Positions 16,279 to 22,268 of a stretch of 64,000 nt of DNA are shown here, piece after piece. The first letter of the stretch is position 1; each line of letters begins with the position of its first letter. The stretch comes from Bacteroidota bacterium (lineage in GTDB: Bacteria; Bacteroidota; Bacteroidia; Bacteroidales; GCA-2748055), in NCBI GenBank assembly GCA_039714655.1, contig JBDLIX010000005.1, positions 16,509 through 80,508 of the forward strand, given 5' to 3'. A model generated the notes under the pieces. That model did not search any database. It had not been told where the DNA came from and was given only the letters and a program-made list of their open reading frames with translations. The translations under genes and the position numbers were made by a program.

Positions 16279-17106
16279 ATGAAAACAATGAAGCTCAACC
16301 GTCGCAGGTTCCTGGCCAGTTCAGCAGTTGCTGCCATGGGAACCTCTCTGGGATTGCAAGCCAGGGATCATCAAAAAAACACTCCTTTGGATGTGAACTC
16401 ACTGTTGCCTTCTCTAAAAGGAAGAAAGATACTTTACACCTATGGTGGATGGAAGGGTCATGAACCTGAACAATCTGTGGCGCTGTTCAAACCCTGGCTG
16501 GAGAGTGAGGGAGCATTGGTAGATCTCTTTACTTCTCTGGATCCATACGCTGATGAGGAGTATATGAAAGGAGTGGACCTGGTCATTCAGGTATTTACCA
16601 TGGCTGAGATTACCAGGGAACAGGAAAAAGGGTTGCTGAATGCAGTGAGCAGAGGTGTAGGACTTGCTGGATGGCATGGAGGCCTCTGTGATTCTTTCAG
16701 GCAAAATGTGGGTTATCAGTTTATGACAGGTGGACAATGGGTGGCCCATCCCGGTGGGGTAATCGATTACAGCGTTCAGGTGATTGACCAGGAGGACCCG
16801 GTAACCAGCGGATTGGGTGAATTTAATATGCATAGTGAGCAGTATTATTTGCATGTGGATCCAAATATGAAAGTGTTGGCTACTACTACCTTTAATGCTG
16901 ATCATGCCAATTGGATAGATGGTTGCACCATGCCGGTGGTCTGGAAAAAGATGCATGGAAGGGGAAGGGTTTTCTACTCTTCACTGGGACATGTGATGAA
17001 AGATTTTGAGGTTCCGGAAGCTTTTGAGATCATGAAGCGTGGGATCAAGTGGGCTTCGGCCAGTAAATTTGAACCTGCCGAACCCTGGAGAACTCCGGTT
17101 TACTAA
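16279..17106 (+). CDS. ThuA-domain (trehalose-utilisation-like) protein with Tat signal
   Basis: Twin-arginine signal NRRRFLASSAVAAMG. The size and the GWHGG..HPGG..LGH pattern resemble the ThuA family. Assigned by recall only. Confidence 0.55.
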   Translation: MKTMKLNRRRFLASSAVAAMGTSLGLQARDHQKNTPLDVNSLLPSLKGRKILYTYGGWKGHEPEQSVALFKPWLESEGALVDLFTSLDPYADEEYMKGVDLVIQVFTMAEITREQEKGLLNAVSRGVGLAGWHGGLCDSFRQNVGYQFMTGGQWVAHPGGVIDYSVQVIDQEDPVTSGLGEFNMHSEQYYLHVDPNMKVLATTTFNADHANWIDGCTMPVVWKKMHGRGRVFYSSLGHVMKDFEVPEAFEIMKRGIKWASASKFEPAEPWRTPVY

Positions 17107-17123
17107 ATAAGAGACCCTAATTA

Positions 17124-18359
17124 ATGAAACTTTTCATTCCAATTGTAACCATTGTCCTGATGAGTATGCTGACAGCCTGTGAGATCGATGATCCCGGGAA
17201 AGAGACAGAAAATGAGGAGGAAGAAGAAGCTGTTCCAACATTTACCTATCGCATTGTTGAGACAGGAGTTACCGCGTGCTACAATAATTTCCAGAAGATT
17301 GATAAACCTTCTTTGGGAGATCCCTTTTACGGACAGGATGGAAATTACAGAGGATTTAATGCGGCTTATGAAGATAACGGGGATGGAACAGTCACCGATA
17401 AGATAACGGGTTTGATGTGGCAGCAGGAGATGGGGGTGAAGGCCTCATTTAAGATAGCCAAATCTTCTGTGCCAAAAATGAACCTGGGAGGTTATACAGA
17501 CTGGAGGCTTCCAACCGCAAAGGAGCTTTACTCACTGATCCGGTTTACCGGGAAGAATGGTGGCACTCCAGCCTCTTCCATTCTTTTCATTAATAGTGAT
17601 TACTTTATCCAGCCCTGGGGCGATACAACATCGGGTGAACGCTATATCGATGCCCAAACCTGGTCTGCCACTGAATATGTGGGAACAACGATGAACAATG
17701 ATGAAACTGTATTTGGTGTCAATTTCGTTGACGGAAGGATCAAAGGCTACCCAAAATTCATTCCCGGTACATCCCAGCCCAACGAAATGTATTTCCGAAT
17801 GGTAAGGGGTAATCCATCCTATGGGTTCAACGATTTCATTGATCATAGCGATGGCACCATCTCAGACCTGGCAACCGGACTCATGTGGCAGCAAGCCGAT
17901 GATGGTACTCCCAGGGATTGGGAAGAGGCTCTGGCTTATGCGGAAACACTTGAACATGCCGGGCATTCGGATTGGAGACTTCCCAATGCAAAGGAGATGC
18001 AGAGCATTGTTGATTATTCCAGAGCACCGGATATCACAGGATCTCCAGCCATTGACCCCATGTTCTACTGCACCGAGATTGATGATCCTGAGGGCAATGG
18101 TGGGCAATATCCTTACTACTGGACAGGAACCACGCATCTGGATGGACCGGACCCTGAAAGCGCAGCGGTATATATTGCATTTGGCGAAGCTCAGGGATGG
18201 ATGCAGGATCAGTTAATGGATCTCCACGGTGCAGGAGCTCAAAGAAGTGATCCCAAGTCTGGTGATCCAGGCGATTACCCATCTTATTGGGGTCCGCAGG
18301 GCGATGTACGATATGTCTACAATTATGTGCGTTGTGTCAGGGATATCCCCCTGAAATAG
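17124..18359 (+). CDS. DUF1566 (Lcl C-terminal-like) domain lipoprotein
   Basis: Lipobox LTAC. Two copies of the DUF1566 signature (GLMWQQ...DWRLPTAKEL and GLMWQQ...DWRLPNAKEM). Confidence 0.7.
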   Translation: MKLFIPIVTIVLMSMLTACEIDDPGKETENEEEEEAVPTFTYRIVETGVTACYNNFQKIDKPSLGDPFYGQDGNYRGFNAAYEDNGDGTVTDKITGLMWQQEMGVKASFKIAKSSVPKMNLGGYTDWRLPTAKELYSLIRFTGKNGGTPASSILFINSDYFIQPWGDTTSGERYIDAQTWSATEYVGTTMNNDETVFGVNFVDGRIKGYPKFIPGTSQPNEMYFRMVRGNPSYGFNDFIDHSDGTISDLATGLMWQQADDGTPRDWEEALAYAETLEHAGHSDWRLPNAKEMQSIVDYSRAPDITGSPAIDPMFYCTEIDDPEGNGGQYPYYWTGTTHLDGPDPESAAVYIAFGEAQGWMQDQLMDLHGAGAQRSDPKSGDPGDYPSYWGPQGDVRYVYNYVRCVRDIPLK

Positions 18360-18442
18360 AGGAGTGCCAACTAAGAAAAAACAGTGATGAGGATTGGACA
18401 TTGAAAAATAATGTCTATTTTCGGAAATAATATAGATAAATA

Positions 18443-18529
18443 ATGACTCATTACACTGATACAAATAGCTGGCGATGGCATTGGTGGCACTCCCTCCAAC
18501 ATGCTTCGTGGGCAATGATTGACTTGTAA
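18443..18529 (+). CDS. Trp-rich leader peptide (28 codons, 5 Trp) of a trpB2 attenuator
   Basis: ATG 18443 to TAA 18527..18529 translates to MTHYTDTNSWRWHWWHSLQHASWAMIDL. TGG codons lie at 18470, 18476, 18482, 18485 and 18509. It sits directly upstream of a terminator and the trpB2 start. Confidence 0.65.
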   Translation: MTHYTDTNSWRWHWWHSLQHASWAMIDL

Positions 18530-18552
18530 TGATCAACTATATTTAAACCAAC

Positions 18553-18587
18553 ACGGGGCATGTTAAATAACTGCCCCGTTTTTTTTT
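18553..18587 (+). terminator. attenuator terminator between the Trp leader ORF and trpB2
   Basis: Stem ACGGGGCA (18553..18560) and TGCCCCGT (18572..18579), followed by 8 T (18580..18587). It ends 30 nt before the trpB2 ATG. Confidence 0.75.
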
Positions 18588-18616
18588 GCATTACTACACC
18601 CATAAAACTGAAAAGC

Positions 18617-19993
18617 ATGAGCAAAGTGAAAAAAGTATTCCTCGATGAGCATGAGATGCCAAAACAGTGGTATAACATTGCTGCAGATCTTCCTGGTACG
18701 CTGAATCCACCCCTGGGGCCCGATGGGAATCCCATTGGTCCGGAGATGCTGGCACCCGTATTTCCAATGAATCTTATCGAACAGGAGGTGAGTTCCGAGC
18801 GCTGGATCGATATTCCTGAGAAAGTTCAGGAGATGCTTAATATGTGGCGCCCGGCTCCCCTGGTAAGGGCATACGCACTTGAGGAGGCGCTGGGGACACC
18901 TGCCAGGATCTATTATAAAAATGAAAGTGTATCGCCTGCAGGCAGCCATAAACCCAACACAGCCGTTGCACAGGCATACTATAACAAGGAATTTGGCATC
19001 AAGAAACTAACCACAGAGACAGGAGCCGGGCAGTGGGGGAGTGCCCTCTCTTTTGCATGTTCGCTGGTAGGTCTTGAATGCAAAGTATTCATGGTACGGG
19101 TGAGCTTTGACCAGAAGCCATTCAGAAAATCTATGATGGAAGCCTGGGGTGGTAAATGTATTGCAAGCCCCAGTGAAGAGACCCAGGCAGGGCGAAACGT
19201 ATTGGCTGAACATCCCGACACTCCGGGTAGCCTAGGGATTGCCATCAGTGAAGCTGTGGAAGCGGCCGTTACCGATCCAACCGGAGAGACACGATATTCA
19301 CTGGGCAGTGTTCTGAACCATGTGATGCTGCATCAAACCATTATCGGTCTTGAAGCTAAGAAACAGCTTGAGAAAATCAATGAGAAGCTACCCGATGTGG
19401 TGATTGGTTGTGCAGGTGGCGGAAGTAATTTTGCAGGGATCAGTTTTCCCTTTATGTTGGATAAGATCAATGGTGCTGATATAGATATTATTCCTGTTGA
19501 ACCAGCCAGTTGTCCAACACTAACAAAAGCTCCTTTTGCCTACGATCATGGCGACCTTGCAAAAATGACCCCCTTGCTGGCCATGAACTCACTGGGTCAC
19601 GGATTTATTCCACCACCCATTCATGCCGGAGGATTACGCTACCATGGAATGTCACCTCTTGTGAGTCATGCAGTAAACCAGGGCCTTGCCACCCCCCAGG
19701 CGCTGCACCAGCTGGAGTGTTATGAAGCCGGCGTGCTGTTTGCACGTACCGAAGGGATCATTCCTGCACCTGAAACCACCCATGCCGTAGCATCGGCTAT
19801 CAGAGAGGCAAAGAAAGCCAAAGAGGAAGCCAAAGAGAAGGTGATTCTCTTCAACTTCAGTGGACATGGCTTGATGGACCTGGTTGGATACGAGAAATAT
19901 TTCAAAGGTGAGCTGAAAAACTATGAACTATCCTCTGATGAATATGAGGAGTTCACAGCTGTTTTGAAAAATCATCCTTCACCCATCGTATAG
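18617..19993 (+). CDS. trpB: TrpB-like PLP-dependent enzyme (tryptophan synthase beta chain, type 2)
   Basis: MPKQWYNI..., [13 protein letters not shown] (PLP lysine), [13 protein letters not shown], and GGGSNFAG. The length and N-terminal extension are typical of the TrpB2 group. Start set at ATG 18617. Confidence 0.9.
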
Positions 19994-20016
19994 TTTTGGT
20001 TTAATATTAGCGAGGA

Positions 20017-20058
20017 TAGCTGTTCCGGATCAAAGTGTCCGGGACAGCTATTTTTTTT
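20017..20058 (+). terminator. rho-independent terminator after trpB2
   Basis: 13-bp stem TAGCTGTTCCGGA (20017..20029) and TCCGGGACAGCTA (20038..20050) with one G-U pair, followed by TTTTTTTT (20051..20058). Confidence 0.8.
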
Positions 20059-20096
20059 AGTTTTTGCAATAGGCGATTAATCCCTATCTTAATCGG

Positions 20097-20663
20097 ATGA
20101 AGTCTATTGCAGTGTTTTGTGGTTCCAGTTCAGGGAACAATGGAATTTACAGAGAGATGGCAGGAGTACTTGGAAGAACATTGGCCAAACAGAAGATACA
20201 GCTCATATATGGTGGGGGAAAAGTGGGGCTTATGGGAGTCATCGCCGATGCAGCCCTCGAAGCTGGAGGTCACGTTACCGGGGTGATCCCGGGTTTCCTT
20301 CAAACCAGGGAGGTGGCACATGACAATCTTACCGAAATATTCCGTGTTGAGTCGATGCACGAACGAAAAGCCCTGATTGATAAAATGAGTGATGGCGTTA
20401 TTGCAATGCCAGGAGGATTCGGAACACTGGATGAAATGTTTGAGATGCTCACCTGGGGTCAGCTTGGGCTTCACCAGAAACCTGTGGGGTTACTGAATGT
20501 CAATGGGTTTTTCTCCAATATTATGAGTGCCATTGAAACCATGGTCGACGAAGGATTCCTCAACCAGATCAACAAGGAAATGGTACTTATCAGTGAAGAT
20601 GTCGGCGAACTGCTTTCTAAAATGAACAGTTATAGTGCTCCCGATGTGCCAAAATGGATATAA
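20097..20663 (+). CDS. LOG-family protein (TIGR00730 type; cytokinin riboside 5'-monophosphate phosphoribohydrolase-like)
   Basis: VFCGSS, YGGGKVGLMG and the PGGFGTLDE motif. 188 aa. Confidence 0.85.
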   Translation: MKSIAVFCGSSSGNNGIYREMAGVLGRTLAKQKIQLIYGGGKVGLMGVIADAALEAGGHVTGVIPGFLQTREVAHDNLTEIFRVESMHERKALIDKMSDGVIAMPGGFGTLDEMFEMLTWGQLGLHQKPVGLLNVNGFFSNIMSAIETMVDEGFLNQINKEMVLISEDVGELLSKMNSYSAPDVPKWI

Positions 20664-20768
20664 TTCGTATAGCTTATAATGATATATATAATCTAATTTA
20701 GGTAATAATATATTATATGATTTATATTACTTAATATATATAGTAATAACCAAAATATCATCTCAGTA

Positions 20769-22268
20769 ATGCGAAATTATAATATAAATAACTTATTATT
20801 TAGGCTGCTGATCTATGGGTTCTTCTCTCTCTGCCTGGTTGGATCATGCACTCACGGGAAAAACAGTGATGGTCCTTACTTTGGAAATGGGTTTCATAAT
20901 GGGTGGGCTGACCAGCATTCCATTGTAATCTGGACAAGACTGACTCAGAATCCGGAAATGAATCTTGCCGGGCAACCGTTTATTCCTCTTACCCGAGAAC
21001 AGCATGATACCCTGGATAAACTGGGGAACCGGGATTCAATCCACCAGGCCCAGATACCAGACAGTCTTACACTGGCTGATATGGAAGGAGCTTGTCCCGG
21101 TGCAAACGGGGAGGTAAAACTCATATATTATCCCCTGGTTGATCCTGGTCAGATGAAAGAGACTGCGTGGGAAAAGGTTGATCAGGAGAAAAATTACACC
21201 AAACAATGGAGAGTGGAGGAACTTACTGCCAATACAAGGTATCATGTGGAGATCTTCGCCCGTAAAAGTGAAGAGGCAGGTATCTCTGATACCATAACCG
21301 GAACATTCATTACTCCTCCGAACAAAGAGATGATTGATGAGATCAGGTTCTGCATCGTCACCGGTCACGATTACAACCGCAGGGATGATCCCGCTCATGG
21401 ACACAAAATCTACCCATCCATGCTTGCTACCGTACCCGATTTCTATGTCCACACCGGGGATACTGAGTACTACGATAAGTTTAATCCCTGGGCCATGACC
21501 GAAGAATTGATGCGTTTTAAATGGGACCGCCTGTTCGCGCTTCCTTTTCAACGACAGTTCTTTACCGAGGTCACCACCTATTTTTTAAAAGATGACCACG
21601 ATCTGCTTCGAGATGATGTTTACAGGGGTATGCGATATGGAGCTGTCTCATTTGAAAGAGGAGTGGCAATCTTCGATCAGGAACAATTCCCCTCCAACCC
21701 CGTACCCTATAAAACAATCAGGTGGGGTAAAGACCTGCAGATCTGGCTCATGGAGGGGAGGAATTTTCGCACTCCCAATCCTGATCCGGACGGACCGGAG
21801 AAAACCATATGGGGCCAGGAGCAGAAGGAGTGGCTGTTCCGTACCATAGAATCTTCCGATGCTACATTCAAACTCATTATTTCACCTACCCCAATTCTGG
21901 GACCGGATCGTGAAAGTAAGCGTGACAATCACGCCAACCTGAATTTCACCCATGAAGGGAATGAGATCAGGGACTTTGTCAATGGTCAGGAAAATGTTTA
22001 CCTGTGTGTGGGAGACCGGCACTGGCAATATGTGTCCCACTGGGAGGGAAGCAACCTCTGGGAATTCAGCTGTGGTCCGGGATCCGATATGCATGCAGGA
22101 GGTTGGAATCAGTCGGATCAAAAACCTGAGCACCGTTTCCTCCGGGTAAAGGGTGGATTCCTGACTGGAAAAGTCACACGGGTCGAAGAGCGTGCATTGC
22201 TGATATTCCAGCACTGTGATGTGGAAGGAAAAGTCGTTCATGAAGAACAATTTGAAGCACCATTATAA
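20769..22268 (+). CDS. PhoD-like alkaline phosphatase/metallophosphatase lipoprotein
   Basis: Lipobox LVGSC. PhoD-like N-terminal segment (WADQHSIVIWTRL), then the metallophosphatase pattern GDTEYYD, KDDHD, GDRHWQY. Confidence 0.6.
   Translation: MRNYNINNLLFRLLIYGFFSLCLVGSCTHGKNSDGPYFGNGFHNGWADQHSIVIWTRLTQNPEMNLAGQPFIPLTREQHDTLDKLGNRDSIHQAQIPDSLTLADMEGACPGANGEVKLIYYPLVDPGQMKETAWEKVDQEKNYTKQWRVEELTANTRYHVEIFARKSEEAGISDTITGTFITPPNKEMIDEIRFCIVTGHDYNRRDDPAHGHKIYPSMLATVPDFYVHTGDTEYYDKFNPWAMTEELMRFKWDRLFALPFQRQFFTEVTTYFLKDDHDLLRDDVYRGMRYGAVSFERGVAIFDQEQFPSNPVPYKTIRWGKDLQIWLMEGRNFRTPNPDPDGPEKTIWGQEQKEWLFRTIESSDATFKLIISPTPILGPDRESKRDNHANLNFTHEGNEIRDFVNGQENVYLCVGDRHWQYVSHWEGSNLWEFSCGPGSDMHAGGWNQSDQKPEHRFLRVKGGFLTGKVTRVEERALLIFQHCDVEGKVVHEEQFEAPL

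Follow-up and report, generated by a model that had tools for sequence, protein, structure and literature searches.

The stretch analyzed here (hereafter, the window) comprises 64,000 nucleotides (nt) of contig JBDLIX010000005.1 from a Bacteroidota bacterium and contains a stand-alone trpB2 gene, whose product is a TrpB-like pyridoxal phosphate enzyme. Ahead of this gene lie a promoter-like region, a short open reading frame (ORF) with clustered Trp codons, and an intrinsic terminator whose 5' arm can alternatively pair with a segment of the ORF. Judging from these features and their conservation in relatives, the element is very probably a ribosome-mediated leader-peptide attenuator that senses charged tRNA-Trp and controls trpB2 as a monocistronic gene. 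The initial annotation of this region had proposed the same logic, which our analysis supports in that a short ORF, clustered Trp codons, and the three pairings of classical attenuation (1:2, 2:3, and 3:4) were all found. The parts of the element and the gene that it precedes are as follows.

18394..18423, plus strand: promoter-like region of putative function, with TTG at 18394-18396, a 19-nt spacer, and TATTTTCG at 18416-18423
18443..18529, plus strand: leader peptide ORF of 28 codons (peptide MTHYTDTNSWRWHWWHSLQHASWAMIDL), with ATG at 18443 and TAA at 18527-18529
18465..18487, plus strand: segment 1, the 5' strand of the 1:2 anti-antiterminator, which overlaps the Trp codons and pairs with 18493-18516 in the minimum-energy fold
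18470..18487, plus strand: putative regulatory Trp codon run W-R-W-H-W-W (TGG CGA TGG CAT TGG TGG)
18498..18512, plus strand: segment 2 (AACAUGCUUCGUGGG), with segment 1 or segment 3 as alternative partners
18548..18564, plus strand: segment 3, which serves as the 3' strand of the 2:3 antiterminator and includes the terminator 5' arm (18553-18560, continuing to 18564)
18569..18587, plus strand: segment 4, which contains the terminator 3' arm (to 18579) and the T8 tract (18580-18587)
18617..19993, plus strand: trpB2 (458 amino acids; Pfam PALP), the monocistronic gene predicted to be regulated

Leader ORF, terminator, and alternative pairings in the window

The 28-codon ORF contains five TGG codons (18470, 18476, 18482, 18485, and 18509), four of which fall within 18470..18487, as the initial annotation had described. 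Thus, TGG makes up 5/28 leader codons, compared with 12.3 per 1,000 codons in the long ORFs of the window. The pattern of the Trp run, TGGNNNTGGNNNTGGTGG, occurs only once in the 64-kb window, and 100 dinucleotide-preserving shuffles gave 0 matches. No Shine-Dalgarno sequence precedes the leader ORF.

Downstream of the leader, an inverted repeat search retrieved ACGGGGCA (18553-18560) and TGCCCCGT (18572-18579) followed directly by T8 (18580-18587), which bears out the strong intrinsic terminator first noted there; its hairpin has a predicted energy of -16.2 kcal/mol. An automated terminator scan missed this hairpin because its 11-nt loop exceeds the limit of the scan. Two of the distances originally given required correction. 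The gap from leader stop codon to terminator stem is 23 nt rather than 24 nt, and the T-tract ends 29 nt rather than 30 nt before trpB2, whose ATG is at 18617; a reading from 18618, where the gene had been placed, is out of frame.

An 11-bp antiterminator had been suggested between 18500..18510 and 18552..18562. This pairing is present and is in fact longer. By repeat search, AACATGCTTCGTG (18498-18510) is complementary to CACGGGGCATGTT (18552-18564). To represent a stalled ribosome, we masked everything to a point 13 nt beyond a Trp codon and folded the RNA only up to 18571. Under these constraints, a 15-pair 2:3 helix (18498-18512 with 18548-18564) was predicted at -18.1 to -19.1 kcal/mol, and it uses up the terminator 5' arm; the 2:3 duplex by itself has an energy of -20.4 kcal/mol. 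Folded without a ribosome, positions 18430-18620 instead adopt helix 1:2 plus the terminator (-46.4 kcal/mol; z = -2.6 versus shuffles). The search for alternative folds that the initial annotation had recommended therefore recovered three alternative helices. In these models, helices 1:2, 2:3, and 3:4 are the alternatives of classical attenuation, with termination as the predicted default state. The minimum-energy fold of the window also contains outer stems (18433-38/18540-45 and 18444-55/18525-35); we rejected these as parts of the element because only 33% and 55%, respectively, were paired in relatives.

The assignment of the downstream gene as an isolated TrpB2 type proved correct, both from profile scores and from its monocistronic setting. 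The product scores 715 bits on NCBIfam model NF009057 (cutoff of 366) and 637.5 bits on TIGR01415 (cutoff of 518.85), while its score on the TrpB1 model TIGR00263 (161.6 bits) is below the cutoff of 392.45. No TrpB paralogue was found in the 64-kb window.

Conservation and linkage to trpB2

Relatives were drawn from species-representative genomes as 80 loci picked solely by TrpB2 protein homology. The closest 37 loci, with 79 to 93% TrpB2 identity, belong to Bacteroidales/Bacteroidia metagenome-assembled genomes (MAGs). At least 35 of these 37 contain a W-rich short ORF about 165 to 205 nt upstream of trpB2; L005, in which the contig runs out 38 nt before trpB2, and L036 are the exceptions. 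In all of the Bacteroidales/Bacteroidia leader loci analyzed (34/34), a hairpin and T-run precede trpB2, with the T-run mostly starting about 35 to 50 nt before the start codon. Folding was performed for the window and for 37 leader/terminator loci, which comprise these 34 loci plus L049, L068, and L078. The stalled-ribosome, nascent-RNA fold paired most of the terminator 5' arm with upstream sequence in the window and in 37/37 loci, and the z-scores of the antiterminator versus dinucleotide shuffles of the upstream part were all negative (-0.4 to -6.3). The initial annotation had named relatives as the place to look for conservation, and leader, terminator, and antiterminator are all conserved at these loci.

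Conservation within the family is concentrated in the elements on which attenuation would depend. In a 27-sequence alignment (A1), mean column entropies are 0.30 to 0.47 bits for the Trp run and segments 2, 3, and 4, compared with 1.0 to 1.6 bits for the spacers and the N-terminal codons of the leader. Most of ATGCTTCGTGG (segment 2) and of CACGGGGCATGTT...CTGCCCCGTTTTTTT (segments 3 and 4) is invariant, as are the four clustered TGG columns, whereas leader codons 2 to 9, the spacers, and the terminator loop vary freely. Pairing is likewise retained. Terminator helix 3:4 is paired in 93.9% of A1 cells, with few compensatory changes; helix 1:2 is paired in 77%, with core pairs at 93 to 100%; and helix 2:3 is paired in 82.8%, versus 37 to 59% when its 3' partner is slid by 1 to 3 columns. 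RNAalifold independently recovered the 1:2 core and the terminator, but with a negligible covariation term (-0.12). Because the helices are nearly invariant in this close family, covariation tests are not decisive, and the structural support within the window's family consists of conserved pairing potential rather than compensatory change.

The promoter-like region is also part of the conserved unit. Bacteroidetes promoters have the consensus -33 TTTG/-7 TAnnTTTG, which the box in the window resembles. A TAnnTTT[C/G/A] box lies 14 to 28 nt ahead of the leader start codon in 29/34 loci, with a distance of 16 to 19 nt in 23 of them. A sigma-70 promoter scan was uninformative, as its model is not applicable to the host phylum. 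The position of the box implies a transcript start near 18428, roughly 15 nt before the leader ATG, and its conservation implies a self-contained transcription unit.

Several features indicate that the leader is conserved as a reading frame. Frame 0 is open in 28/28 relatives, compared with 4 and 7 for the remaining two frames. A start codon is retained 9 to 10 codons ahead of the W-run even though codons 2 to 9 are free to vary, and several relatives start the ORF with GTG or TTG. In nearly all main-family loci, the stop codon follows the final Trp codon of the run by 39 to 45 nt. Mean column entropy is 0.30 bits in the Trp run versus 1.3 to 1.6 bits in its flanks. The fifth TGG (18509) is not conserved as a Trp codon; because it lies inside segment 2 and Trp occurs at this position in only 18/28 relatives, it probably just reflects the RNA sequence of that segment. 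As a separate observation, the first and second Trp codons are separated by an Arg codon (18473-18475; A1 columns 44 to 46) that is CGA in nearly all relatives. This codon is the rarest Arg codon in the long ORFs of the window (9.9%) and pairs as GCGA:UCGU in helix 1:2, such that RNA constraint and slow decoding are not separable as explanations.

The leader peptide also has a fairly well-conserved C-terminal motif, ASWAM(I/V)GL, which raises the question of whether the main product of a genuine attenuator acts in trans, either as the W-rich peptide or as the terminated leader RNA of ~160 nt, with control of trpB2 being secondary. Regulation of other genes has been reported for peTrpL and rnTrpL of Sinorhizobium (PMC7298713 and PMC6614838), and a terminated leader RNA would accumulate under Trp-replete conditions. 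We nonetheless regard such a trans-acting product as very unlikely, although no search aimed at trans targets was made. The conserved C-terminal codons coincide with segment 2 (column entropy of 0.47 bits), in which GCT and TCG do not vary even at their synonymous positions, indicating constraint at the RNA level; the N-terminal half of the leader is not conserved; and every true copy that we found stands directly before trpB2.

This linkage was examined with a metagenome scan based on segments 2 and 3 only (ATGCTTCGT N35-65 CGGGGCATGTT), a pattern that includes no Trp codon. The scan gave 37 matches, 24 of which are true attenuators. All true copies (24/24) have an upstream run of three or four W codons, and trpB2 lies 53 to 66 nt downstream in each of the 22 copies with enough downstream sequence (22/22). 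The other 13 of the 37 matches were located inside coding sequences, lacked a T-run, W-run, or trpB2, and were discarded as chance matches. Among the loci, neighboring genes differ (a ThuA-domain gene is usual upstream, and others are unrelated), but the leader always stays with trpB2. These data bear on whether the hairpin and T-run might simply terminate the upstream Lcl_C-domain gene (17124-18359), with the W-rich ORF arising by coincidence. In favor of this reading, the gene is on the same strand and the terminator follows it. However, 194 nt separate its stop codon from the terminator, the W-run pattern would be expected 0 times in the window by chance, and the whole unit, promoter-like box included, is conserved where the upstream gene is different (ThuA or unrelated). 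A chance arrangement is thus extremely unlikely.

Beyond the window's family (group A), trpB2 genes are preceded by leaders that are unrelated to that of the window in sequence. In group B (L028, L030, L032, L033, and L037; TrpB2 ~80% identical), the leader has the form M.RNTNRVIWRWRWRWHC... (WRWRWRW type), and the element is located about 185 to 35 nt upstream of trpB2. Here, the last Trp codon is overlapped by GGCAC, which pairs with GUGCC, and GUGCCCGAUGAUC, which holds the stop codon UGA, pairs with the terminator 5' arm GAUYGUCGGGGC (-18 to -25 kcal/mol). The terminators of two KSB1-like loci (L049 and L068; ...WGWWW...) and one unclassified MAG (L078; ...WYWQNWW...) are unrelated to it (AAGCCCGC.../...GCGGGCUU), and these loci have a segment (AGUGGGU, GUAGUGGG) that can pair with either the Trp-codon region or the terminator 5' arm. 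The same logic therefore appears in leaders without shared sequence, implying that it was kept or reinvented. Such independent architectures are, among the predicted structures compared here, the strongest structural argument for attenuation.

They also help to weigh a mechanism in which the UGG repeats are a site for an RNA-binding protein (TRAP-like logic) or another factor acting in trans and the ORF is incidental and untranslated. In favor of such a site, the UGG triplets recur at regular spacing without variation, the CGA between them hardly changes in its nucleotides, and the alternative hairpins would suit that mechanism equally. The reading frame argues otherwise: an in-frame start is retained 9 to 10 codons upstream, and despite variable N-terminal codons, 28/28 relatives have an open frame (compared with 4 and 7 for the other frames), and the position of the stop codon is consistent, either 39 to 45 nt past the run or, in group B, inside segment 2. 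Furthermore, the unrelated leaders (WGWWW and WYWQNWW) retain Trp codons and not the nucleotide repeat, and no candidate gene for a binding protein is linked to the locus. A factor-mediated attenuator accordingly seems very unlikely.

In other phyla, trpB2 may be subject to a different form of Trp-linked control. A gene of ~93 codons belonging to the Trp_repressor family (PF01371; E of about 1e-16 to 1e-18) precedes trpB2 by 21 to 55 nt, in the same orientation, in 6/80 loci, none of which has a W-leader (L036:2692-2973, L039:2692-2976, L040:2693-2983, and L060:2695-2976, along with L042 and L059). These loci come from MAGs labeled Calditrichaceae, Leptospirales, Spirochaetaceae, and Deltaproteobacteria. 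The gene may represent an alternative means of Trp-linked control and, as such, a second independent hint of a link between trpB2 and Trp.

A few additional observations concern the more distant loci. A possible FWWW leader is located far upstream of trpB2 (-306..-246) in L080 (Desulfatibacillum alkenivorans), and the Tangfeifania-like loci L064 and L069 contain a two-Trp ORF, MITLTNYRGSNWLWHDFIQDA. TrpB2 itself is 72 to 80% identical across MAGs labeled Bacteroidota, Calditrichota, Spirochaetota, Planctomycetota, and Desulfobacterota (L036 to L080). This level of identity is unusually high and could reflect strong constraint or horizontal transfer.

Proposed mechanism and comparison with known Trp leaders

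In the mechanism that we favor, ribosome-mediated attenuation, transcription would start from a Bacteroidetes-type promoter ~15 nt before the leader ATG, and a ribosome would translate the 28-codon leader as RNA polymerase proceeds. When Trp is plentiful, the ribosome would clear W-R-W-H-W-W and move over and beyond segment 2, which would be covered or would re-pair with segment 1. Segment 3 would then be free to pair with segment 4, and the resulting hairpin and U8 tract would terminate transcription 29 nt before trpB2. If no ribosome is loaded, helices 1:2 and 3:4 would form, and the default would also be OFF. When charged Trp-tRNA is scarce, the ribosome would stall at 18470-18487 and cover segment 1, leaving segment 2 (18498-18512) free. 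Segment 2 would pair with segment 3 (18548-18564) once the latter is transcribed, blocking the terminator and allowing transcription of trpB2.

Several points weigh against this interpretation. The leader stop codon of group A, the family to which the window belongs, lies 14 nt beyond segment 2. Blocking helix 2:3 in Trp-replete cells would therefore require a transiting or terminating ribosome between segments 2 and 3 together with re-formation of helix 1:2, and not a ribosome parked on segment 2. The antiterminator energy is unremarkable versus shuffles in about half of the individual loci (p > 0.05). Covariation is almost absent, and the few compensatory changes could reflect shared ancestry. 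Neither of the Rfam Trp-leader models (RF01692 and RF00513) matches the element. The mechanism also presupposes transcription-translation coupling and translation of a leader that lacks a Shine-Dalgarno sequence, both of which we infer for this lineage, and the case for it is built from sequence comparison and predicted folds.

The closest known counterpart is the Bacteroid-trp leader (Rfam RF01692), which was described in Bacteroidetes by Weinberg et al. (2010; PMC2864571) and for which comparative genomics is likewise the sole source of evidence. The two elements occur in the same phylum and have the same predicted mechanism, in that a short ORF with clustered UGG codons and then an intrinsic terminator stand before a Trp-synthesis gene. 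They differ in their targets, as RF01692 precedes trp operons led by trpE or TrpB1, whereas the window element precedes a lone TrpB2; in Parabacteroides, for example, the protein downstream of RF01692 is of the TrpB1 type and begins MKTYQVDKNGYYGEFGGAYVPE.... RF01692 leaders contain contiguous WW or WWW, in contrast to the W-R-W-x-W-W of the window leader, and the hairpins have no detectable sequence similarity. Consistent with these differences, models of RF01692, RF00513, and T-boxes gave no match at E <= 10 in 17500-20800 or with a 246-nt query (18380-18625), and RF01692 gave no match in the whole window at gathering thresholds. The sub-threshold Rfam matches (snoRNAs, DapZ/sraA terminator look-alikes, and CsrB) were dismissed as chance; none is a Trp leader, T-box, or riboswitch. 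On sequence grounds, the window element shares the predicted mechanism and phylum of RF01692 but belongs to a different sequence family and precedes a different target gene whose function is debated.

Trp leader peptides are textbook regulators in Proteobacteria, and trpL of Escherichia coli has 14 codons with 2 adjacent Trp codons. Like trpL (RF00513), the window element follows the 1:2, 2:3, and 3:4 logic, has Trp codons in segment 1, would terminate by default, and is situated between a promoter (here, a putative one) and a Trp gene. The window leader is nevertheless longer (28 codons), contains 4 to 5 Trp codons, lacks a Shine-Dalgarno sequence, and serves a single gene outside a trp operon. 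Its stop codon is downstream of segment 2, whereas that of E. coli is just before it; group B has the E. coli-like arrangement.

Attenuators of the leader-peptide type also occur outside Proteobacteria, namely, in Actinobacteria (Seliverstov et al., 2005; PMC1262725). These also precede genes other than trpE (e.g., trpS2 and a second trpB-trpA unit; PMC1262725), although their phylum and sequences differ from those of the window element. The "trpB2" of that study is the second trpB copy in the trpB2-trpA operon of Corynebacterium diphtheriae and is not stated to be a stand-alone gene of the TIGR01415 type. The TrpR (PF01371)-linked trpB2 loci of other phyla resemble the window locus in that the orthologous gene is likewise accompanied by a Trp-related regulator; they would use a protein repressor acting on DNA, while the window element is a cis-acting RNA. 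In the literature searched, coverage of which is incomplete such that a prior description is possible, we found no leader or attenuator before TrpB2-family genes.

These comparisons bear on the role of TrpB2. Of a selective function for trpB2_o, Merkl (2007; PMC1854888) wrote that it "has not been identified yet." PMC11917138, citing Hettwer and Sterner (2002) and Busch et al. (2014), describes TrpB2 encoded outside the operon as having high affinity for indole and using O-phospho-L-serine. A conserved switch that would be OFF by default and ON at scarce charged tRNA-Trp argues that cells use TrpB2 to make tryptophan, and a role in Trp supply or indole salvage is a reasonable inference from such regulation. 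More broadly, the evidence leans slightly toward stand-alone trpB2 genes having their own dedicated and previously undescribed class of Trp-sensing leader attenuators, evolved or reinvented several times (WRWxWW, WRWRWRW, and the KSB1-like WGWWW), with a TrpR-family gene instead in other phyla. If so, these leaders would provide, for the first time, evidence from regulation that TrpB2 encoded outside operons is a tryptophan synthase induced by Trp starvation (for indole or O-phosphoserine salvage) and does not have an unrelated role. The window element also adds a leader family absent from Rfam, in which the leader is a small ORF of the kind usually missed by gene callers, and would extend predicted leader-peptide attenuation to lineages without Shine-Dalgarno-led initiation.

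Surroundings of the trpB2 unit

The initial annotation had placed a LOG-family gene next after trpB2, beyond a further terminator, and this order was confirmed. The flanking features are as follows.

17124-18359, same strand as the leader: Lcl_C-domain gene, upstream of the leader
20012..20055, plus strand: strong terminator after trpB2, with a 19-pair stem and a T-run, which closes the trpB2 unit ahead of the LOG-family gene
20097-20663: LOG-family gene (TIGR00730), downstream of the trpB2 terminator

ThuA-domain and Lcl_C-domain genes are the upstream neighbors in the window, and PhoD-like and GH2 genes follow the LOG-family gene. The hairpin region at 19958-20056 gave a far sub-threshold match to the Bacteroides small RNA BTnc049 (18.4 bits, compared with a gathering score of 81.9; E = 8.6), which most likely reflects mere resemblance between terminators. 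The order ThuA-[leader-trpB2]-LOG (window positions 16279-20663) is kept in most of the close relatives (L001 to L035); only the window, L001, and L016 have an Lcl_C gene inserted after ThuA, ahead of the leader.

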